Positions 7,116-17,865 are shown, counted from the stretch's first letter. The stretch: 64,000 nucleotides of DNA from an uncultured Bacteroidota bacterium (GCA_963714955.1 CAVQQJ010000008.1:2498049-2562048); one strand, 5' to 3'. Numbers and translations: made by a program. Notes: a model not told the origin generated them from the letters alone.

Positions 7116-9587
7116 GTGAACCAAATCCAACCTCAAGCGGGGAATCTCAACATGTTTTACGGATTACTCATATTTCTTGGAATTCAATCCATGGTCAATC
7201 CAAATGCCGCTGCCGCAGAAAAGCCTGTTAAGACAGTGTCGACAATCGGACAACTCAAGAGCTTGGAGAAAACCTCGAAAGCGGTCTTCGCGAAGTATGA
7301 TTCGGGAGAAGCGACTATCGAGATTTCTGAATCTGGCGTCTACCATCTTTCGGTTGCGGGAAAAAATGGCGCCAGGAAATCATTTGCAACCGTAGAACAA
7401 CCGGGGAATCTGGATGGGCACCTGGTCAGTGCAACCAGGGATGAGGTTTCGTCTGATTTCGATAACGCGACAATTGATTTTATTCCTGGGCAGTTGACCC
7501 TTGCATTTAAGCCGAAGGACGGCTCGCATCCGTTCGAGTTAACCGAGATTCAGTTCTCAGATTCTGGACTTACGGCGAAGTTTGATATTCATGGTGCCAG
7601 AAAATTTTACGGGCTCGGAGAGAAAACATTTCCTTTCAACAAATTCGGCATCCGTTCGGTGATGTGGAATTCGGATTTTCCCGCTTATTCGACCAGGTTT
7701 GATCCACTGTATGAAAGCATTCCATTTATCCTCAAAGCCGATACAAGTGGAGCATACGGCCTCTTTTTCGATAACACCTACCGGACTTCGTTCGACATCG
7801 GCGCCTCCGACAGCGACCAAATCAGCTACAGAGCTTCCGGAGGCGCGCTTGAACTTTACGTTATTACAGGGAAAAATGCGGTAGAAGTAGTAAAAAAATT
7901 CTCTGATCTAACGGGTAGAATGCCGATGCCGCCAATCTGGGCACTCGGCTACCAGCAATCCAGATGGAGTTACTACCCCGAAAAAAAGGTTCTCGATCTT
8001 GCTCACGGTTTCCGCGATAGGAACATCCCTTGCGATGTAATTTATCTGGACATCAATTACATGGATGGGTACAAGTGTTTTACTTGGAGTCCAAAGGATT
8101 TTCCCGGCCCCCGGGAAATGTTAGATACACTTCATCAGATGGGATTTAAAGTCGTTACGATAATTGACCCCGGCATTAAGGATCAGAAGGGTTATCCGGT
8201 CTATGACAGCGGCATAAGAAACGATGTGTTTGTCAAAAAGCCTGATGGAAACTACTTCGTCGGTCAGGTATGGCCCGGCGACTGTGTATTCCCCGATTTC
8301 TTGAACGAAAAGACAAGACAATGGTGGGGTGACCAATACAAGCCGCTCGTTGAATTCGGAGTGGATGGGTTTTGGAACGACATGAACGAGCCGAGTGTAT
8401 TCAATTCACCCAACAAGACTTTCCCGTTGGATGCAATCCACCACATAGATGATGAAAGAGTAGAACACGCGGAAGCCCACAATGTATACGGGATGCAAAT
8501 GGCTCGCGGAACGCGAGAAGGTCTGGAGAGGATAGAGCCGGGCAAACGTCCACTTGTCCTTACGAGAGCAAACTATGCCGGCGGACAACGCTACGCTGCG
8601 ATGTGGACGGGGGACAATTTTGCGAGCTATGCCCATCTGAGATTAGCGCTCGAAATGTTTCTGAATATAGGTGTCTGTGGACAACCGTTTGTCGGCAGCG
8701 ATGTCGGCGGTTTCGTAGGAAACCCGGACGCCGAACTTTTTTCAAGATGGCTTGAACTGGGCGCGTTCAGTCCGTTCTTTCGGACTCACAGCGTGATCGA
8801 TTCAAAACCGAGGGAGCCTTGGGCGTACGATTCGACTCACACGGAAAAGAATAGGGATATAATTAATCGTCGATATGAGTTGATGCCTGAAATCTACACT
8901 GCATTCAGGAATGCAAATCTGAACGGCCTCCCAATTGTAAGGCCGTTGTACTTGGATTATTCAGATGACGGAGAAGTGTATGATTTGTCGGATGAGTTCT
9001 TGTTTGGCGATAAGCTTTTGATTGCACCGGTCCTCGATTCGGGCGTAACGAAAAGGCAAGTCTACCTTCCGCAAAATAACAACACCGTTCTCACATGGGC
9101 GAGTTTCTATGACGGAAAGCGGTTGAGAAGCGGTTGGCATGAAGTTGATGCACCACTGGGAAAGACACCCGTGTTCGTCAGAGAAGGAACGATCCTGTTT
9201 TCTCAAAGTGACATTCAATCGACGACCGAACGAGCGGATACTCTCTTCATCAGCGTTTACGGTGAGACGAACGCGAGTGGAAATGTTTATTTTGATGACG
9301 GCGAATCGATGTCGTACAAGAATGGAGATTTCCTCGACCTTTCCGTCGCCCTAAAAGCAGATGGGAATGCGAGCCGCCTGACCTTCACGCGGAGGGGGAA
9401 CTTTATGCCAAACTACAAATTTCTTGTCGTCCAAATGAAGAATCCGGATTCGATGCCTTTCATGACTGCGGAGCTGAGTTCTGCGGTAGGCCGCGTGTCG
9501 CAGGGTGGACGTGAGCGCGTACGAGAAAATTTGATCCGGTTTGTTTTTCCATTTGACGTCGCGGTCAGGACCATAACGATGCGTTAA
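7116..9587 (+). CDS. Glycoside hydrolase family 31 alpha-glucosidase, secreted
   Basis: 823 aa with GH31 signatures YLDINYMDGYKCFTW, GFWNDMNEPS and WTGDN. The N-terminus is signal-peptide-like. The start could be GTG 7116 or ATG 7152. Confidence 0.88.
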   Translation: MNQIQPQAGNLNMFYGLLIFLGIQSMVNPNAAAAEKPVKTVSTIGQLKSLEKTSKAVFAKYDSGEATIEISESGVYHLSVAGKNGARKSFATVEQPGNLDGHLVSATRDEVSSDFDNATIDFIPGQLTLAFKPKDGSHPFELTEIQFSDSGLTAKFDIHGARKFYGLGEKTFPFNKFGIRSVMWNSDFPAYSTRFDPLYESIPFILKADTSGAYGLFFDNTYRTSFDIGASDSDQISYRASGGALELYVITGKNAVEVVKKFSDLTGRMPMPPIWALGYQQSRWSYYPEKKVLDLAHGFRDRNIPCDVIYLDINYMDGYKCFTWSPKDFPGPREMLDTLHQMGFKVVTIIDPGIKDQKGYPVYDSGIRNDVFVKKPDGNYFVGQVWPGDCVFPDFLNEKTRQWWGDQYKPLVEFGVDGFWNDMNEPSVFNSPNKTFPLDAIHHIDDERVEHAEAHNVYGMQMARGTREGLERIEPGKRPLVLTRANYAGGQRYAAMWTGDNFASYAHLRLALEMFLNIGVCGQPFVGSDVGGFVGNPDAELFSRWLELGAFSPFFRTHSVIDSKPREPWAYDSTHTEKNRDIINRRYELMPEIYTAFRNANLNGLPIVRPLYLDYSDDGEVYDLSDEFLFGDKLLIAPVLDSGVTKRQVYLPQNNNTVLTWASFYDGKRLRSGWHEVDAPLGKTPVFVREGTILFSQSDIQSTTERADTLFISVYGETNASGNVYFDDGESMSYKNGDFLDLSVALKADGNASRLTFTRRGNFMPNYKFLVVQMKNPDSMPFMTAELSSAVGRVSQGGRERVRENLIRFVFPFDVAVRTITMR

Positions 9588-9890
9588 GGCGGGTTCTGCA
9601 TTAAAGGCACCTCTTATTACAGAATCGGAACAATTTCTTTGGTAGGTCATTGAGGTTCTCACTGGCAAATAAGCCGTGTTACTTTCTTCGGTTTTCGATT
9701 ACCATCCTGTAATTCCAATTTTCCTTACTCCAAAATAGCACCTCGAAAACACAATTTTGGATGTTTCTAACGGCACGAGGTTTGTCGCTAATAATGCGAT
9801 CATGAAAAACATGAAATTGAATCTTGGTTTGGACGGGAAAGAGTTTTGCAATAAAATGTCGAAAATTTTAAAAATCTTAGGAGGTTACAA

Positions 9891-10382
9891 ATGAAAAGGT
9901 TAATGCTAGTCGCGATGGTTCTAAGCTTGGCGGGCATGTCATATGCACAGTCTAGCGCAAATGGTACAGCCACAATCAATGCCTACATCGAAAAAGGTCT
10001 CACAATGAGTGTTTCCAATTCTACTCTTAATCTTGGCAATCTAGTCGCGGGAACGACGCCGGCGGCTGTAAACCCGGCAAGCGGGACCGTCCCTACTTTC
10101 ACAGTTACAGGTGACGGCGGACACGCGGTAAATGTCACTTATGATGCATCTGTTATGTTGACTACGGCTGGCGATTCGTTATCATTTGCAACGGACTTCA
10201 GAGGTGATGGGACCAATGATCAAGCTGGAGCGACGACAGTGCCCGCATCGGTAAATCTCAGCAATAGCTCACCGGCCAGCGGCAACTTTTATATGTGGCT
10301 TGGCGGGAACGTCGGCACAATTCCTTCAGCTCAGACACCGGGAACCTATACCGGTACGTTCCATGTCTTGGTAAGTTATTGA
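9891..10382 (+). CDS. Secreted pilin-like subunit (DUF4402 / spore-coat-U-like by pattern)
   Basis: AGGAGG lies 7 nt upstream of the ATG. Signal peptide MKRLMLVAMVLSLAGMSYA/Q. The mature ~140 aa is S/T/G/N-rich and beta-rich. It has an alternating-hydrophobic N-terminus (TATINAYIEKGLTMSV) and the C-terminus GTYTGTFHVLVSY. It sits in a subunit-chaperone-usher context. Confidence 0.6.
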   Translation: MKRLMLVAMVLSLAGMSYAQSSANGTATINAYIEKGLTMSVSNSTLNLGNLVAGTTPAAVNPASGTVPTFTVTGDGGHAVNVTYDASVMLTTAGDSLSFATDFRGDGTNDQAGATTVPASVNLSNSSPASGNFYMWLGGNVGTIPSAQTPGTYTGTFHVLVSY

Positions 10383-10439
10383 TATATTAAACCGAAGGCG
10401 CTTCGAGTGAGGCGGTGCTTCGGATGGATTTTTGAGAAC

Positions 10440-10479
10440 CAGAAGGCTTAGCATTCCGTCTAAGCCTTCTGGTTTTTTC
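10440..10479 (+). terminator. Strong intrinsic terminator between the subunit gene and the chaperone gene
   Basis: ccagaaggcttag (10440-10452) and ctaagccttctgg (10461-10473) form a perfect 13-bp stem with an 8-nt loop, followed by TTTTTT (10474-10479). A weaker hairpin (ccgaag..cttcgg) lies at about 10393-10424. Confidence 0.8.
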
Positions 10480-10672
10480 TTCAGCAGGTGGTGGTGCGTG
10501 GCGATCCAGACTAAGGGCGCGGTAGTATTTGTTGGGTTCATGCGAAGCGCTTCAATTAGTTTTTCGGCGTCTCCACACAGGTCTGTGGAAGGGTGCGTGG
10601 TGCCGCCGCAGGCTTCATACCTTGGCCTATTGAATAATTGAGAAACAACCATTTATTGACTAAATTAGACCC

Positions 10673-11495
10673 ATGAAAAAGATTATAGCTTTCTCTATAG
10701 TTTTGTTGGTTTCCTCATTGACTCAGGCCCAGGTTATTGTGGCGCCAACGGTGTTATTCATGAGTGACCAGTCCAGATTCGGGACGTTCGTAGTCATGAA
10801 CCGTTCTAACACGCCGCAGGAAATATCAATCTCGTTCAGGTTTGGTTTTCCGGAATCAGATTCAGCTGGAATTACCCGGATGGAATATTCCGACACGGCC
10901 ATGGAGAGATTGCATTCTTGCCAGGAATGGCTTAAAGGCTTTCCGCAGAAATTCATTGTTAATCCGGGTCAACAGCAGGTTGTCCGTCTTCTGGTCGCAC
11001 CGCCGACAGGCATTGCCGATGGCGAGTACCTGGACCAGATTGGTGACGAGTTCCACCCCTCAAGCCAAGACGATCGATACGGTCAGGACCGGCATCACGG
11101 CGAATATCACATTCGTGCTCGAGCAAATTACGACGATCATTTACAAGCAGGGGAATGCGTCGACGACGGTGGATTTGCCAAGCATCGAAATTAGACAAGA
11201 TTCGTCGTCCGTCAACGTAGTAGCTCATGTCACGCATGGTGGAAACTCGCCGTTCTTCGGAAAGGTCACGGCAGCTGTCAAGGATAAGGCGGGGAACAAC
11301 TTGTACAGCGAAGAGCAAACGATCGCAGTTTACAGGGATAATATGTTGTTTAAGTTCTCCATACCGGCATCACGATTTCCAGAGGGTTCTTATACCGCGG
11401 ATGTCAAGTTGACTTCTGAAAGAAGCGATATTCCGGAAGACGATTTACTGAAGCTTCAGGCGGTGGAGAAAACTGTAAATTTCTCCGTCCAGTGA
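10673..11495 (+). CDS. PapD-like periplasmic pilus chaperone candidate, frame interrupted by one extra base at 11030
   Basis: Signal peptide MKKIIAFSIVLLVSSLTQA/Q. ORF 10673-11194 reads ...PPTGIADGEY, then ORF 10842-11495 continues WTRLVTSSTPQAKTIDT... from tgg at 11031 (tac-c-tgg). The joined product is ~274 aa, with two beta-sandwich-like halves. Confidence 0.6.
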
Positions 11496-11694
11496 TCCTT
11501 CCCTCGCCATCTTCGCCGGAAATTATTTAGAAAGTTTTTGTAAGACCAAGGACGGAGCGGGATATCTGTACTCGAAGGTTTTCTGGATCGGGATAATCTT
11601 CATCGTCGCCTGCATTCCTAAGGTCTCGGCACAAACAACTTTTGAGGAAGCCGAGTCCCAGGAAATCTACCTTTCCTTTAATTACAACGGTCTC

Positions 11695-14523
11695 TTGACT
11701 ACCGTTGTAACCTGCATATACCAGAATGATTCGGTTTATATTCCCATCGGAACTCTTCTCAAAGAACTCAAGATTAACGAGACTGTTGATTTGAAAGACT
11801 CCACCCTAAGTGGTTTTTTCGTTCTCTCAAGTGTTCCGTATGAAGTCAACTTTCGGAAAGGCAAAGGCAAGGTGGGGGAAAGGCTTATCGAGTTTGACAG
11901 TGCCCGGGTAATCATCGGGCAGCTCGATTTCTACGTATTGCCTTCATTAATAAAGGAGCTGTTCGATCTCGATTTTATCGTTGATTTGAGCTCGTTGACA
12001 CTCTCGCTCAATACGACCATGGAACTCCCGATTGCAACGGAATATCAGAGAGAGGCTCGACGAAGTTATGTGATAACGGCACCGGGCGCTTCCTTAATAC
12101 AGGCGCCGCTTGCTTATCCTCGAGATCGTTCGATGCTGAACGGAGGAGTCCTCGATTATTCACTCAGCGCGTTCTTGGACAAAGGAAAATCCAGTTACAA
12201 CTACGACTTTTCAGGTGGCGGCGAAGTACTTGGCGGAGAAACAGATGGATCGGTTTTCGGAAATATTTCAAGCGGAAAGTCGAGTCTTCAATCGAGTGAT
12301 CTGGGTTGGAAGTATGTTTTCGATTCTACTAACTATATAACTTATGCGGGGGCGGGCAACCTCTATTCAAATGGATTGACCCAGTATGGATTCCGGGGAG
12401 CTCAGATTTCAAATGAACCAGTTACACTAAGAACGGTTTTTAGTAATTACGCGATTGATGCCAAAACCAATCCCAACTGGGATGTGGAACTGTATCTCAA
12501 TGGGCAACTTGTCGGCTACACCAAAGCGGACGCAGGAGGAAATGCTCACTTTACCATTCCACTGGTGTACGGCACCTCGGTCATTCAACTTAAATATTAC
12601 GGCCCGAGCGGCGAAGTTGTAGAGACCGAGCGAAGACTGCAAATACCATTCACATTCGTCCCGGCCGGACAAATTACCTATACGGTCGGCGGCGGAAAAC
12701 TTAATAATAGCAATGACAATTTTCTATCCGGCGACGCCGCGATGGGAGTGGCCGATTGGCTTACGGATAAAATCGGCTCCGATTATGTTGAGGACCCGCT
12801 ATTCTCCGAGCCCCTTTTTTTTAACTCTGTTTCTGCGAGGTTTAGCTCCGAGTACATGATGAGCATCGACGCGGCACCTTCCGCGTTTTACCGTTCGGCA
12901 TTCAACGGCACGTATGCTTCCCAGACTTCGTTCGACGTAATGTACTCAAGATACGAAACCAATTTACTTTATAACCCGAGTGACAAGTTGCAGGATGCTC
13001 AGGTAGACTGTTTTGTCCCGATCGCCGTTCCAGGAGGTTCACTTAACTTGAGAGCTGTCGGCATCGGCCAGGAATACGCTGGCGGCCAACGATCATTCAG
13101 CTACTCCGGATTTGTAAACTCAAGCCTTGGCCAGTTCAACGCATCTATTGGCTATCTTCAATCAGTTTTCGAAAACGGTGGCGGCCCCTCAGTTAAAAGC
13201 TACGGTATTTCCGCCTCGGTCTTGTATTCGTTGCTGTTTGAGGAGGGAGGTTTGGCATTCCTGAACGGGGGACTCGTAGGCATGTCGACGAGGTATGGAG
13301 TGTTAAAGAATTCGCCTGACGATATACAGATGGAATTCTCGAAAAGTATCCATAGTTATTTCAGATTTCAGATTGCAGCCGAAAGGGATTTCTTGAACAA
13401 GTTTACGGTTTTCAGCCTGCAAATCATAGCCGATCTTCCATTCACACGGTCCACCACAAGTGCTCAAATTCAGAATAAGGAATCCTGGGTAACGGAGAAT
13501 ATAACCGGTTCAGTCGGATTCGACAGCAATCATAAATATTTCTCATTCAACGACCTTGGTTGGTCGGGTCATTCTGGGGCATCGGTAAGGATGTTTGTGG
13601 ACAATAACAACGACGGGGTGTACGACGATGGCGACGATCTGATCGGAGGAGGGTCGGTGATACTTCGTCAGTCCGTATTATCGGAATTATCGTCCGATGG
13701 AATTACACGGGAGTGGAACCTGTTACCTTACACCCAATACAGCGCTGACATCGACCTCAGTTCAATCAAGAATCCATTGCTGATTCCGAAGGAAAAATCG
13801 TTTTCATTTGTTACTGACCCGAATTCCTACAAGGAAATTGATGTACCATTCTTCGCCGGGGGAATAGTTGATGGTACCGTTTTGAAGACCGACGGAACGA
13901 CAACAACGGCGATCCCTGGATTGACCATTAAGATCAGATCGCTGAGCTCCGCTTTTCAAACCTCGCTATCGGTTTTCAACGATGGTACTTTTTATTATAT
14001 GGGCTTGCTGCCCGGGAGATACGAGGCTTCGGTAGATTCAAGTCAACTTGCAATGCTGGGTGTGGAAGCCGATCCGCCTGTGTTAAATTTTGAAGTCAAG
14101 AATTCAAAAAGCGGCGATTTCGTTGAAGGTCTGAAGATTATTTTGCGAGGCAAGGAGCTGAATCCAATTCCAGCTATAACCGCAACCACAACGGTTAAAA
14201 CCGATCAGCTTCCGGAAAAGCCGCCCGAGGTCAAAATTCCCCCGACGGCCGTCGTGTCAATTCCCAACAAAGAAAAATTTGTAATTCAGATCAGCGCTTT
14301 CAAAGGCCGACAAGACGCTGAGAGATTTGCAGCGAGGGCGACGAAAAAGACAAAGGAGAGACTTAATATTTCTCTGGATGAGAATTCGAAGCTCTACGTG
14401 GTCGAATCTGATACAATCGAGACGATAGAAGATGCTATGCAGAAGCTCTCTCTATTTCGCTACAAGTCTCAGTATAAGAATGCTTTTATCATGGACAGCA
14501 CAGGAAAACGTATTTTCCCTTAG
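11695..14523 (+). CDS. Usher-like outer-membrane protein with C-terminal CarboxypepD_reg-like and SPOR domains
   Basis: 942-aa ORF. An usher-type motif NWDVELYLNGQLVGYTKADAGGNAHFTIPLVYGTSVIQLKYYGPSGEVVETERRLQIPF lies at nt ~12478-12657. A long G/S/Y/F-rich barrel-like region follows. A DNNNDGVYDDGDD acidic loop is present. GIVDGTVLKTDGTT..GLLPGRYEASV looks CarboxypepD_reg-like. A Pro-rich linker precedes the SPOR-like FVIQISAFKGRQDAERFAARATKK..LYVVESD. An in-frame signal peptide (YSKVFWIGIIFIVACIPKVSA/Q) lies upstream, so the real start is probably near CTG 11566. Confidence 0.6.
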   Translation: MTTVVTCIYQNDSVYIPIGTLLKELKINETVDLKDSTLSGFFVLSSVPYEVNFRKGKGKVGERLIEFDSARVIIGQLDFYVLPSLIKELFDLDFIVDLSSLTLSLNTTMELPIATEYQREARRSYVITAPGASLIQAPLAYPRDRSMLNGGVLDYSLSAFLDKGKSSYNYDFSGGGEVLGGETDGSVFGNISSGKSSLQSSDLGWKYVFDSTNYITYAGAGNLYSNGLTQYGFRGAQISNEPVTLRTVFSNYAIDAKTNPNWDVELYLNGQLVGYTKADAGGNAHFTIPLVYGTSVIQLKYYGPSGEVVETERRLQIPFTFVPAGQITYTVGGGKLNNSNDNFLSGDAAMGVADWLTDKIGSDYVEDPLFSEPLFFNSVSARFSSEYMMSIDAAPSAFYRSAFNGTYASQTSFDVMYSRYETNLLYNPSDKLQDAQVDCFVPIAVPGGSLNLRAVGIGQEYAGGQRSFSYSGFVNSSLGQFNASIGYLQSVFENGGGPSVKSYGISASVLYSLLFEEGGLAFLNGGLVGMSTRYGVLKNSPDDIQMEFSKSIHSYFRFQIAAERDFLNKFTVFSLQIIADLPFTRSTTSAQIQNKESWVTENITGSVGFDSNHKYFSFNDLGWSGHSGASVRMFVDNNNDGVYDDGDDLIGGGSVILRQSVLSELSSDGITREWNLLPYTQYSADIDLSSIKNPLLIPKEKSFSFVTDPNSYKEIDVPFFAGGIVDGTVLKTDGTTTTAIPGLTIKIRSLSSAFQTSLSVFNDGTFYYMGLLPGRYEASVDSSQLAMLGVEADPPVLNFEVKNSKSGDFVEGLKIILRGKELNPIPAITATTTVKTDQLPEKPPEVKIPPTAVVSIPNKEKFVIQISAFKGRQDAERFAARATKKTKERLNISLDENSKLYVVESDTIETIEDAMQKLSLFRYKSQYKNAFIMDSTGKRIFP

Positions 14524-15077
14524 GGTAGAAATCGCTCGGATTAAGTAGTTAGGGGCGTTGCTTCAGACGGAACCATCTTCCCATCCAGGTCGCTGTGTCT
14601 CTTCAAGGAGTGTCTATCATATATTTTACTCATGAAGTCCCGCAACTCTTTTAAGCCGATTAGGTAATGATTACAATCTATTGTGAAGTCGCGTGAAGAG
14701 AGAGATGATTTGTTCTTCATTGACGCCGACAAGAGGTCTCAATTGGTTGGATTGAGTTTCCTATCGTTGGAAGAAAATCGAGCCCAAACGTACAGAGTAA
14801 CTTAAAAACTGCTTCTTGGATGCGCCACGGAGGGCGCGTTCGTTCCGGTAAATAGTTCTTTCCCGTTCTAATCTCCTTACGTATCATTCCTGACTATTCG
14901 TGCCTTCAATTTCGAGGCATTTAATCGCTTTTCTAGTTCGACAAGGGGCCGCGACATGGGCGGAGAACTATTTTTGATTGCCGCGGGTTAGAGTATTTAA
15001 TGAGATGAAAGCCACTGGAAATGTGGTTTGCAAAAGCACTAATGACTTGATCTTCAACTAGTTCAAGTCGGAGGGAT

Positions 15078-15431
15078 TTGAGGATAGGAGTGAAGAGCGC
15101 AATCCTATTAGGATTTCTTGGATTCCTGATGTGGGCATTCGAATTGCATGCGCAAGTGAGCACCACTGCAACCGTGACCCTAACCGTGTTACCGGCATCC
15201 GGAGTCGAACTCTTTAGTACGATTCTTGAACGCTTGTACCATTTAGAAGAGGAAGTAGGCACTGTAGAATCAGCGCGGGAATCATCTGCTGATGCTCAAT
15301 TTGTCTTCGATTCATGCAACGGAGAAGTCTCTTTGAAACCGTTGAAGGGGGATAGTATCGTTGCAGGATTACACAATCCTAAAGGCCCAAGAAGAGTGCA
15401 GATCCTAGAGATCGATTACCTAGGGAACTAA
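15078..15431 (+). CDS. Small secreted hypothetical protein
   Basis: 117-aa ORF with the signal-peptide-like N-terminus KSAILLGFLGFLMWAFELHA/Q. The mature N-terminus VSTTATVTLTVLPASG is beta-strand-like. I recognise no family. The start (TTG 15078 or GTG 15090) is uncertain. Confidence 0.4.
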   Translation: MRIGVKSAILLGFLGFLMWAFELHAQVSTTATVTLTVLPASGVELFSTILERLYHLEEEVGTVESARESSADAQFVFDSCNGEVSLKPLKGDSIVAGLHNPKGPRRVQILEIDYLGN

Positions 15432-15587
15432 GGCTCCGTTCCAACTTTTCAGCACAAATTTCCGGGAAAAATCCGTAACTCGAACGTACGATTACGTAAT
15501 GCGTCGGTGCAAATTGAAAACCCATGCACCCATTTCCTCATCCTTTTCACCAATTCAACCGGCATAATTAATGTACCATGACACTCA

Positions 15588-16061
15588 GTGGCAAACTTTA
15601 CAATAACATCCGATTTCCATAGGCTCTTTGAGACGGTTAGAATACCGTTCGTTGTCACCGACAGCGAGCTCAGTCTCATCTATGCTAATCCATATGCACA
15701 TCAGACACTTCCTCTCGACCTTGAAACCGGGAAAAGGTTGAACATTGAGGATTTTATGCAGCTGGAAGATTCCACTCCGTTCGATGCCGTGGTCAGCGAG
15801 TGCAAAGAACAGGGCGAGGGGATCGGAACGCTGAAGCAGAGAGGCACCGACAGATATTTCAGGGTCAAGGCGTATTACCTTAAGGGAACAAATTGTGAAA
15901 TAATTTTCCACTTTGATGATGTCTCTCAAGTCAGGGTTCTTGAGAATCAATTCTACGATCAGCTCGTAGATCTTTACAATCAACTAGAGACAAAAGAACG
16001 CGAAATTGCCAGCTTGAAGAGCAGTGTGCTTCAGTCGAAAGAATTGAGTCAAAGAAGCTAA
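15588..16061 (+). CDS. Stand-alone PAS-like domain protein with a C-terminal coiled coil
   Basis: 157 aa with a GTG start. The PAS-like pattern is FHRLFETVRIPFVVTDSELSLIYANPYAHQTL...YFRVKAYYL...IIFHFDDVS, followed by the heptad-like tail LENQFYDQLVDLYNQLETKEREIASLKSSV. No output domain is present. Confidence 0.5.
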   Translation: MANFTITSDFHRLFETVRIPFVVTDSELSLIYANPYAHQTLPLDLETGKRLNIEDFMQLEDSTPFDAVVSECKEQGEGIGTLKQRGTDRYFRVKAYYLKGTNCEIIFHFDDVSQVRVLENQFYDQLVDLYNQLETKEREIASLKSSVLQSKELSQRS

Positions 16062-16266: not shown

Positions 16267-17865
16267 TCAGTTAGGCCTCAATCTCCAATCGAGATTCGCC
16301 ACTTTCCAACCCGTCAAAAAAATTAGCTTTGCCCGCTTTTCGAGGATGGGAAAAGTGATTTTGTCGCTCGTGTCGGTTGGTTTGTGATAGTCGGGGTGGT
16401 TGCCGTCGAAGAAGAATATTACGGGTACATTTTTCTTCGCGAAATTGTAATGATCGCTGCGATAATAAAACTGGTTAGGATCGTTGTCGGAATCGAATGA
16501 ATAGTCGAGCTTTAGTCCGACCGATTGGCTGTCCGCGGCGACGAGCAAAGAATCGAGATTCTTGCTGAGTCTTGAGCTTCCGATAACGAACACATAGTTA
16601 CTATCTCGATTCACGTATGACGTATCAATCCTTCCATCCATGTCCGTATTGAGGTCGGTGACGATATTCGTCATCGGGACAGTCGGGTGACTTGTGAAGT
16701 AGTCCGAGCCGAGAAGCCCTTTTTCCTCGCCGGTCACCGTAAGAAAAATTATGCTCCTCCTAGGTCTCGTCTGCATTTTCGAATACAACTCCGCTATTCC
16801 GAGGACCGTGCTTGTTCCGGAAGCATTGTCGTCAGCACCATGGTACACTACACCGGTGGCAGTTTTTCCGAGATGGTCGTAGTGGGCAGAATAGACAACG
16901 TACTGGTCTTTCAGCGAGGGATCGGTTCCTTCAAGCATCCCTATGACATTTTCAGTTTGTCGCGTTTCGCTGACAATCTTCACGCATACCGTCACTTCGC
17001 CGAGCTGCATCGACGCCGGTGATTTCAATGAGTCTATTCTCGCGGCCACCGTCTCAACATCCGTGTTCGCAGCTTTCATCATCTGATCTGCGACTTTGTT
17101 TCTTATATAGAGAACCTGCGTCGTGGCCGGAATCCTGGCTTCCTTCGCGGGACTTGCCAGTTTCATCGTCTTGTTGCCGAAGAGTGAGCCGAATTGTTGA
17201 ACGATCCTGGCAACCTCCTTGTCGCCTCCGCGCATGACGATGAGAACGGCTGCTGCTCCGTGCCTTACGGCGTTGCTCCGTTTGTACAACGCCGTTCTAA
17301 TCATGATGTCATTCGTATCGGCAAATGCCGGATTCCCTGACATAATGACGACGATTCGTCCCTTTACATTCAATCCTTGATAGTCCGAATAAGTGCCGTC
17401 TTCGAAACCATAGCCTGCGAAGACCGCCTGCGCGGTGAGGGTCGTGTCAGCGGCGCCGAACGGCGGTACCACAACGTCACTTCCATTTTGGAAATATTTG
17501 CCGCCGGCTTCGACGAAAGAAGAATCGCTGATATAGTGCAGGTCGACATTGAAATGCTGGAGGTAACTCCCGTCGTCACCTATTGGCTTCAGACCAAATT
17601 CCTTGAACTGGCGGGCGATGAAGTCTGCAGCTTTTATCTGCCCGGGCTCGCATGTCTCGCGTCCCTCAAGAGAATCGGAAGCCAGATAATTTAGATCATG
17701 GCGAACGTGAGCGATCGGAAATTGTCTCAATGCTTCTCTGCCGGCGGCATCGTAGTTTGCCTTCGATCCGGATTGTTGATCTACAAGATTTACACCCCTC
17801 ATTGGGGCGATGGATGCGGATAAGCCAAGCAATCCGATTGTCGCATAATATCGAAGGTGAGTCAT
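16267..17865 (-). CDS. M28 family metallopeptidase (aminopeptidase) with a PA domain, secreted
   Basis: 532 aa. Zn-ligand motifs are YSAHYDHLG, GADDNASGTSTVLGIAE and TGEEKGLLGSDYF. The N-terminus is signal-peptide-like. Confidence 0.85.
   Translation of the reverse strand: MTHLRYYATIGLLGLSASIAPMRGVNLVDQQSGSKANYDAAGREALRQFPIAHVRHDLNYLASDSLEGRETCEPGQIKAADFIARQFKEFGLKPIGDDGSYLQHFNVDLHYISDSSFVEAGGKYFQNGSDVVVPPFGAADTTLTAQAVFAGYGFEDGTYSDYQGLNVKGRIVVIMSGNPAFADTNDIMIRTALYKRSNAVRHGAAAVLIVMRGGDKEVARIVQQFGSLFGNKTMKLASPAKEARIPATTQVLYIRNKVADQMMKAANTDVETVAARIDSLKSPASMQLGEVTVCVKIVSETRQTENVIGMLEGTDPSLKDQYVVYSAHYDHLGKTATGVVYHGADDNASGTSTVLGIAELYSKMQTRPRRSIIFLTVTGEEKGLLGSDYFTSHPTVPMTNIVTDLNTDMDGRIDTSYVNRDSNYVFVIGSSRLSKNLDSLLVAADSQSVGLKLDYSFDSDNDPNQFYYRSDHYNFAKKNVPVIFFFDGNHPDYHKPTDTSDKITFPILEKRAKLIFLTGWKVANLDWRLRPN

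Follow-up and report, generated by a model that had tools for sequence, protein, structure and literature searches.

A predicted peptidoglycan-binding tail on an usher-like outer-membrane protein from an uncultured Bacteroidota bacterium

Chaperone-usher pili are the model for ATP-free fibre assembly across the outer membrane, and to our knowledge the usher is a free-standing outer-membrane protein in every studied case. Why, then, should an usher-like protein end in a domain predicted to bind the cell wall? The question is raised by a 64,000-nucleotide (nt) stretch of DNA from an uncultured Bacteroidota bacterium (GCA_963714955.1 CAVQQJ010000008.1:2498049-2562048; the window, below, means this whole stretch), in which a gene at 11566..14523 on the + strand, stop codon included, encodes an usher-like outer-membrane protein of 985 amino acids (aa) from a conserved CTG start. 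A first-pass annotation of this DNA had read the last 666 nt of the gene as a CarboxypepD_reg-like beta-sandwich, a Pro-rich linker and a SPOR domain, and all of these elements are indeed found there. We consider it probable that the protein is an usher-fold pore whose SPOR tail tethers a divergent chaperone-usher-like fibre system to peptidoglycan. The usher fold and the SPOR domain family are both known; the new element is an usher with what would be a modular peptidoglycan tether. We know of no description of ushers coupled to peptidoglycan, and a full-text literature search found no usher described with a SPOR or other peptidoglycan-binding domain.

The SPOR tail and the fold that carries it

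Residues are numbered here from the CTG codon at 11566, so that the numbers of the first-pass annotation are 43 lower than ours, and two AlphaFold2 models were used, one of the full-length protein (predicted local distance difference test score, pLDDT, 82.9) and a further one covering the tail region. The protein ends with a SPOR peptidoglycan-binding domain, residues 903-985 (14272..14520, +), which was recognised by PF05036, by its predicted fold and by its match to CwlC. Scanned alone, the tail scores 23.1-24.8 bits against PF05036 (E-value, E, 9.6e-5 to 2.8e-5; Pfam cut-off 21 bits), and the corresponding matches of homologues reach E 8.6e-26 to 3.2e-47. The predicted structure runs beta-alpha-beta-beta-alpha-beta, with strands at 905-912, 933-938, 943-948 and 974-977, helices at 915-929 and 954-967, and pLDDT of about 90 or more; Foldseek superposes it on the SPOR domain of CwlC (1x60) with a template modelling (TM) score of 0.74 and a root-mean-square deviation of 2.1 A over 77 columns. 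When the PDB was searched by sequence with the family profile, this same CwlC domain was the sole find (E 2.9e-5), and in a phmmer search with the SPOR domain of the window by itself most matches were to designed repeat proteins, a low-complexity noise, and CwlC came only at E 0.18. The domain thus shares its family and fold with those of FtsN, DamX, DedD, RlpA and CwlC. In these proteins SPOR sits on a cell-division protein, a lytic transglycosylase or an amidase, whereas here it sits on a predicted secretion or assembly pore; RlpA is associated with the outer membrane.

Between the SPOR domain and the folded body of the protein lies a disordered Pro/Thr/Lys-rich linker of about 40 aa, KELNPIPAITATTTVKTDQLPEKPPEVKIPPTAVVSIPNK (residues 863-902, 14152..14271, +), which contains 8 Pro, 6 Thr and 5 Lys and has pLDDT of 34-60 in both models. 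Its identity to close relatives is 20-32%, against 60-77% for the folded core domains. The relative L005 has the same single-SPOR form and the common C-terminal ending MDS[TV]GKRI[FL]P, and identity between this protein and that of the window is 64% in the SPOR domain, 67% in the barrel and 32% in the linker. Since the SPOR domain is about as conserved as the barrel while the linker has diverged, the pattern is the one expected for a functional domain on a free tether.

What stands between the barrel and this tether? The first-pass annotation held that the C-terminus differs in make-up from the two small Ig-like domains that end classical ushers, but two beta-sandwiches still follow the barrel at the positions of the two C-terminal domains of ushers, CTD1 and CTD2, and only the linker and the SPOR domain are extra. 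The first sandwich (residues about 668-762, 13567..13851, +), modelled at the CTD1 position and SdrD_B/CnaB-like, holds the acidic loop that had been noticed near nt 13596-13640; the loop is present as DNNNDGVYDDGDD at nt 13600-13638, its D679 is invariant, G684 and G689 are nearly so, and a Ca2+ site there is plausible from the sequence. The second sandwich (residues 765-862, 13858..14151, +; pLDDT 91-98) is CarboxypepD_reg/transthyretin-like and occupies the CTD2 position. In the window protein both Pfam families score below their cut-offs, SdrD_B (PF17210) with 12 bits against 29.7 and CarboxypepD_reg (PF13620) with 16.7-19.4 bits against 32.3. In a set of 46 close homologues, counted throughout at E<=0.01, each of the two is matched in 24 (best E 2.2e-12 for SdrD_B, 1e-10 for CarboxypepD_reg), and in Pfam scans of 90 sampled full-length cluster representatives of the family they are matched in 47 (best 7.1e-21) and 49 (best 2.9e-16), respectively. 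Of the profiles with which the annotation had proposed to examine the tail, PF05036 is therefore matched by the tail alone, and PF13620 is matched in homologues and not in the window. Structure prediction, proposed as well, yields for the tail the SPOR fold described above and a sandwich for which CnaB2 (8bdw, TM 0.72) and transthyretin-like proteins rank first in Foldseek (TM 0.55-0.72). Because these folds rank first and PapC_C is unmatched, the modelled sandwiches are to be equated with CTD1 and CTD2 by position only, not by homology to PapC_C.

That the protein is usher-like, as annotated, is supported at the level of the fold. An N-terminal periplasmic domain (residues about 32-150, 11659..12015, +) stands at the position of the usher N-terminal domain (NTD) according to its secondary structure (pLDDT 82-92) and the collinear Foldseek alignment with FimD; PapC_N has no Pfam match in the window, six of the 46 homologues match Cu_amine_oxidN1 instead, and the folded domain lies within the FimD alignment. 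The beta-barrel translocation domain (residues about 190-662, 12133..13551, +) has about 24 strands by DSSP and matches the FimD and PapC pores; about 6 of the strands precede and about 18 follow a plug domain of six beta strands placed inside the barrel by the DSSP strand list (residues about 288-362, 12427..12651, +), and the two sandwiches come then. With the full-length model the best Foldseek matches are FimD (3rfz_E, E 5.2e-29 over 916 columns) and PapC (7lhg, E 1e-24), the translocation pore entries 3ohn and 2vqi follow at E 1e-14 to 5e-16, and the best non-usher barrels in the same search reach only E 1e-5 to 1e-6. Profile alignment with hhalign gives E 0.14 for the family core against FimD, with plug aligned to plug, and a weak TcfC E-set match in Pfam also lies over the plug. 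Thus, as modelled, the protein resembles FimD and PapC in a collinear folded domain at the NTD position, a plugged large barrel and two periplasmic C-terminal beta-sandwiches, and differs from them in the SdrD_B/CnaB-like and transthyretin/CarboxypepD_reg-like nature of these sandwiches and in the added linker and SPOR domain. FimD itself, scanned as a control, gave PapC_N, Usher and PapC_C and nothing C-terminal of these. By its predicted structure the window protein is clearly an usher, although it is not recognisably one by sequence.

A large family with exchangeable tails

How far does this architecture extend? A core profile, searched against 1.84 billion cluster representatives (clusters at 50% identity), found 12,368 of them at E<=1e-3 and 3,043 at E<=1e-30, which exposes a large unstudied usher-like family of more than 3,000 clusters. 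A scan of species-representative genomes gave 192 relatives; L numbers (L001-L082) denote loci. The best 78 loci are labelled as Kryptoniota or 'uncultured Bacteroidetes' metagenome-assembled genomes (MAGs), with 52-64% identity, Ignavibacteriota, Balneolales and Bacteroidales, and further as Cytophagales, Chitinophagales, Gemmatimonadota, Neomarinimicrobiota and Cloacimonadota. The hosts are described as soil and sediment bacteria, and a Kryptoniota-like genome is the most likely source of the window. We are not aware that chaperone-usher pili are regarded as a feature of the phyla related to the Fibrobacteres-Chlorobi-Bacteroidetes (FCB) group, and the proteins carry the labels 'SPOR domain-containing protein', 'DedD' or 'hypothetical' at NCBI and JGI. 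Three loci, L042, L044 and L067, lie on short contigs binned with 'Methanofastidiosia archaeon', 'Thioalkalivibrio sp.' and 'Reyranella massiliensis' MAGs; they are probably mis-binned contigs rather than true occurrences in those lineages.

The SPOR tail is kept in a large part of this family: in 35 of the 46 close homologues, in 41 of 54 tails from species-representative genomes, a count that takes in the window protein, and in 47 of the 90 sampled cluster representatives. The last count comes from Pfam scans, which were used instead of a local SPOR hidden Markov model built from the first SPOR domain of Kryptoniota (SPOR-1), since that model proved too narrow and found only 24 of 146 representatives. 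The architecture had been called unusual, which is right among studied ushers, those such as FimD being devoid of any peptidoglycan-binding module; within the family of the protein itself it is common, as about half of the representatives show it. The SPOR domain is single in the window, and relatives have one to three (four in one protein), many of them two or three; P0011, P0016 and L006, for example, have three. The length of the linker has a median of 33 aa in the family (interquartile range 26-53, n=98).

Other tails occur at the same place. OmpA-like domains, together with fn3, end the proteins of L037 (7832-8560), L050 (9533-10222), P0042 and P0048, are found in six of the 90 representatives and belong to Balneolales-type proteins, and an Ignavibacteriales protein (L058, 5663-6532) has SPOR and LysM in one tail. 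TPR-repeat tails are seen in L066, L073, L074 (9485-10114) and L079, with a YfiO/BamD-like match in an Ignavibacteriota protein; these tails show no evident connection with peptidoglycan. Proteins that end within 30 aa after CTD2, and are thus tail-less, make up 19 of 75 loci in the genome scan and 39 of 146 cluster representatives. As the Balneolales include tail-less, SPOR and OmpA-like versions, the module seems readily swapped, and since three unrelated modules, SPOR, OmpA-like and LysM, stand at the same periplasmic end, wall attachment would be the property that has been selected. SPOR-tailed versions are present in the cultured strains Cecembia lonarensis LW9, Cognataquiflexum nitidum and C. 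rubidum, and near relatives among the Cytophagales (Algoriphagus, Belliella, Aquiflexum) are without a tail, which makes the tether idea directly testable.

Proposed anchoring and possible septal targeting

What could such a tail do for a fibre-assembly machine? Besides the usher, the system would consist of a DUF4402 subunit and a periplasmic chaperone-like protein of 273 aa. Because the predicted barrel has an even number of strands, and the NTD and CTDs are periplasmic in the usher topology, the C-terminus would be periplasmic as well. By analogy with all characterised SPOR domains, the one at this end would bind glycan strands, most likely peptide-stripped ones, and the flexible linker would let it reach the sacculus, so that the fibre-bearing pore would be tied to the cell wall. 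Such a tether would immobilise the usher, and a pull on the fibre would be borne by the sacculus and not by the fluid outer membrane. As a secondary effect, assembly sites could be biased toward amidase-processed wall at septa and new poles.

Fastening a load-bearing or fixed-position part to the sacculus is a design principle of type IV pili, inverse autotransporters, flagella and type VI secretion systems, and a conserved modular tail (SPOR, OmpA-like or LysM) would add the usher to them. In type IV pili the modules are the LysM domain of TsaP and the AMIN domain of PilQ, and OmpA-like domains are present in OmpA, Pal and MotB. A LysM domain is also carried by the inverse autotransporters YeeJ and intimin (PMC5595812); these and the type IV pilus machines are the nearest functional parallels. 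The design logic is shared, in that an outer-membrane barrel or secretin exposing an adhesin or fibre is fastened to the sacculus through a periplasmic domain that binds peptidoglycan, and some members of the usher-like family use OmpA-like or LysM domains at the position of SPOR; the difference is that their barrels are of other, unrelated classes.

Is septal placement, named as an example in the first-pass annotation, rather than anchoring, the main purpose of the tail? If so, denuded glycans produced by division amidases would concentrate the ushers at septa and new poles. Denuded glycans are what SPOR domains bind, and characterised SPOR domains reach the septum by way of them (PMC6895207). 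Residues Q251, S254, W283, R285 and I313 of FtsN are needed for septal and glycan binding (PMC6895207). The beta1 motif of the window SPOR domain, VIQISAF, retains Gln at the position of Q251, which is required for septal localisation of FtsN, and has Ala at the position of S254, as does RlpA at A273 (PMC6895207). Moreover, SPOR is by far the commonest tail among the representatives, and its tandem repetition, with two or three copies in many relatives, would raise avidity. However, sister proteins hold at the same position OmpA-like and LysM domains, which are general peptidoglycan binders, one of them in combination with SPOR; with tails mixed in this way, the common feature is wall binding and not septum binding. 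A slowly diffusing integral outer-membrane barrel would also be a poor candidate for dynamic septal recruitment, and an equivalent of FtsN R285 is not evident. Targeting as the main role therefore seems unlikely to us. A bias toward septa or new poles is possible and, given the interchangeable OmpA-like and LysM tails, less supported than general anchoring. We are likewise doubtful of a wider proposal, according to which an unrecognised class of DUF4402 chaperone-usher-like fibres extends over the FCB phyla, its usher coupled to peptidoglycan and the SPOR-bearing half of it placing assembly at septa and new poles. If SPOR did place assembly there, surface-fibre biogenesis would be patterned by the cell cycle.

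Several results weigh against the tether that we favour. The window SPOR domain is only slightly above the Pfam cut-off, and it falls just under it (20.1-20.2 bits) when the whole protein is scanned. Its beta3 strand, KLYVVESD, has an aromatic residue and shows no clear Arg for FtsN R285 (LYVV against the usual YRV), in a strand alignment that is ambiguous; since this Arg is apparently absent, glycan affinity may be low or altered, as judged from sequence. About a quarter of the family members are tail-less, and the machine can therefore do without a tether. On the usher side, neither Pfam Usher (PF00577) nor PapC_N nor PapC_C matches the window protein at E<=1, and there is no sequence-level match of the protein or its family to solved ushers. 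The link of the neighbouring gene to chaperones is weak, with PapD_N in six of 29 chaperone-like members (best E 0.006) and E 0.061 for the profile of these members against FimC in hhalign. Finally, unless it is a sequencing error, the frameshift in the chaperone-like gene may have left the system without function here.

Start codon, neighbouring genes and the remaining readings

Where does the gene begin? It had been listed as an open reading frame (ORF) at 11695..14523, +, with a TTG start and 942 aa, a start that misses the signal peptide and the CTG codon. The frame is open upstream to 11545, and this stretch encodes a signal peptide, KVFWIGIIFIVACIPKVSA, followed by QTT and by the motif QEIYLSFNYNGL, both signal peptide and motif aligning with the N-termini of homologues. 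The signal peptide covers residues 1-22 (11566..11631, +; ending in IPKVSA, before Q), with a hydrophobic helix at residues 2-15 in the model, and aligns with that of the homologue P0016. Between 11545 and the TTG at 11695 the open frame contains no ATG, GTG or TTG; it contains a CTG at 11566, eight bases after GGAG, and this codon and the box AGGAnGGAGC are kept in L005-L007, the three closest species-level relatives. Because the signal peptide lies upstream of the TTG, and because the CTG and its Shine-Dalgarno sequence are conserved, the start was taken at 11566, where the CTG, going by these sequences, appears to be a genuine and conserved start codon. Gene callers thus shorten the usher-like protein to 942 aa and lose its signal peptide. 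A truncated or damaged 5' end was considered and is ruled out by the conservation of CTG and Shine-Dalgarno sequence in four species, the window included. The window holds no paralogue of the gene elsewhere in its 64,000 nt.

Upstream on the same strand stand the two other parts of the putative system. The first, at 9891..10382 (+), encodes a 163-aa secreted DUF4402 protein, a putative fibre subunit (PF14352, 33.7 bits against a cut-off of 25.2). The second, at 10673..11495 (+), is the periplasmic chaperone-like gene of about 273 aa, recognised by tblastn with its orthologue in the Kryptonia genome L001 and split by a 1-nt insertion near 11030. The intact 273-aa orthologue matches two window frames (overlapping ORFs 10673..11194 and 10842..11495) that join at DGEY/WTRLV, where the window has an extra C, 'tac c tgg' against 'tac tgg' in L001; the frameshift could stem from an error of sequencing or be a genuine lesion, which would make the gene a pseudogene. 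An intact gene of about 273 aa lies directly upstream of the usher-like gene in 55 of the 78 loci. Loci of Kryptonia (L001, L002), Algoriphagus (L003) and Balneolales (L004) share the gene order of the window, with one to four DUF4402 genes 5' of the chaperone-like and usher-like pair.

The trio therefore looks like an undescribed chaperone-usher-like system of FCB phyla, and our full-text literature search returned nothing on DUF4402, PF14352 or IPR025514. It resembles the FimD and PapC systems in that genes for small secreted subunits and for a periplasmic protein of some 270 aa stand next to the usher gene in what would be one operon, and it differs from classical chaperone-usher systems in its subunits, which are DUF4402 and not Fimbrial (PF00419) proteins, and in its likely host lineage, Kryptoniota/FCB instead of Proteobacteria. 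The C-terminal subunit motif GTYTGTFHVLVSY seems to resemble those of SCPU-type pilins; an SCPU match of the DUF4402 protein was not found at E<=1. Among usher systems the archaic (sigma) ones, which include Csu in Acinetobacter and CupE in Pseudomonas (PMC9452303, PMC4654587, PMC10104325), are phylogenetically the most widespread and the most divergent, and their subunits are small and beta-rich. The system described here is like them in its small beta-rich subunits and divergent usher, whereas no peptidoglycan-binding tail is described for the CsuD and CupE ushers in the literature searched.

Could the tail, or perhaps the whole cluster, be a decaying and functionless remnant in this genome? 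The frameshift in the chaperone-like gene and the lack of a canonical start codon for the usher gene would fit such decay, as would the reduced numbers of parts: L001 and L002 carry three or four DUF4402 genes and the window carries one, and P0011, P0016 and L006 have three SPOR domains and the window protein has one, with no remnants of SPOR-2 or SPOR-3, as found in 1,100-aa homologues, in any frame 3' of 14523. However, the usher ORF is intact across 985 codons, and since the CTG and the Shine-Dalgarno sequence are conserved in three other species, the start is ancestral and no lesion. The single-SPOR form and its ending are common to L005, from which the SPOR domain has diverged about as much as the barrel. 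The lone 1-nt insertion could have arisen in sequencing. The closest relatives come from MAG assemblies whose contigs span several megabases. We thus hold decay to be quite improbable.

More improbable still, in our estimate, is that the protein is not an usher at all and that a large outer-membrane barrel of another kind, for example that of a porin, of an LptD-like protein or of a polysaccharide exporter, has been combined with Ig-like and SPOR domains next to genes unrelated to fibres. What speaks for it is the absence of the three usher families from the Pfam scan, the identity to FimD of only 12% in the Foldseek alignment, and a phmmer search of the PDB in which the chaperone-like and DUF4402 proteins found nothing significant. 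PF00577 is matched in none of the 46 close homologues, and phmmer with FimD found nothing in the family. Nevertheless, the Foldseek E-values of ushers are better than those of any other barrel by over 20 orders of magnitude, in full-length alignments, and the plug domain is at the usher position. PF00577 matches six of the 90 full-length family representatives (best E 2.1e-14), and these distant members therefore provide a transitive sequence link to ushers. The three-gene context is also tightly conserved: a secreted protein of about 273 aa with two domains and small, beta-rich secreted proteins are encoded next to the usher-like gene. The idea that a separate SPOR gene has been joined to the usher gene by an error of assembly, as raised in the first-pass annotation, or by a frameshift can be discarded, because nothing was found in its favour, the same continuous SPOR-tailed ORF recurs in dozens of assemblies made independently in several phyla and CTD2, linker and SPOR follow one another in one frame without a stop codon.

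Downstream of the usher-like gene lie further small genes. A secreted ORF of 117 aa with a signal peptide (15078..15431, +) is of uncertain membership in the cluster, being assigned by motif likeness: its motif AQVSTTATVTLTVLPASG resembles AQVRSTATVKLTVLPAPG of a 146-aa gene at the same position in L001, in a tblastn comparison that is not significant (E 5.5). Its product may be another fibre subunit. A scan for promoters and terminators from 9500 to 15700 yielded 6 terminator-like sites where 6.6 would be expected by chance and is therefore uninformative on the ends of the operon. Two genes downstream of the usher-like gene, a 157-aa ORF (15588-16061) shares 57% identity with a 187-aa protein encoded at the corresponding place in L001, a counterpart for which there is no Pfam annotation. 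The synteny with L001 extends to both sides, with a GH31 alpha-glucosidase-like gene upstream (7116-9587) and an M28 peptidase gene downstream (16267-17865).

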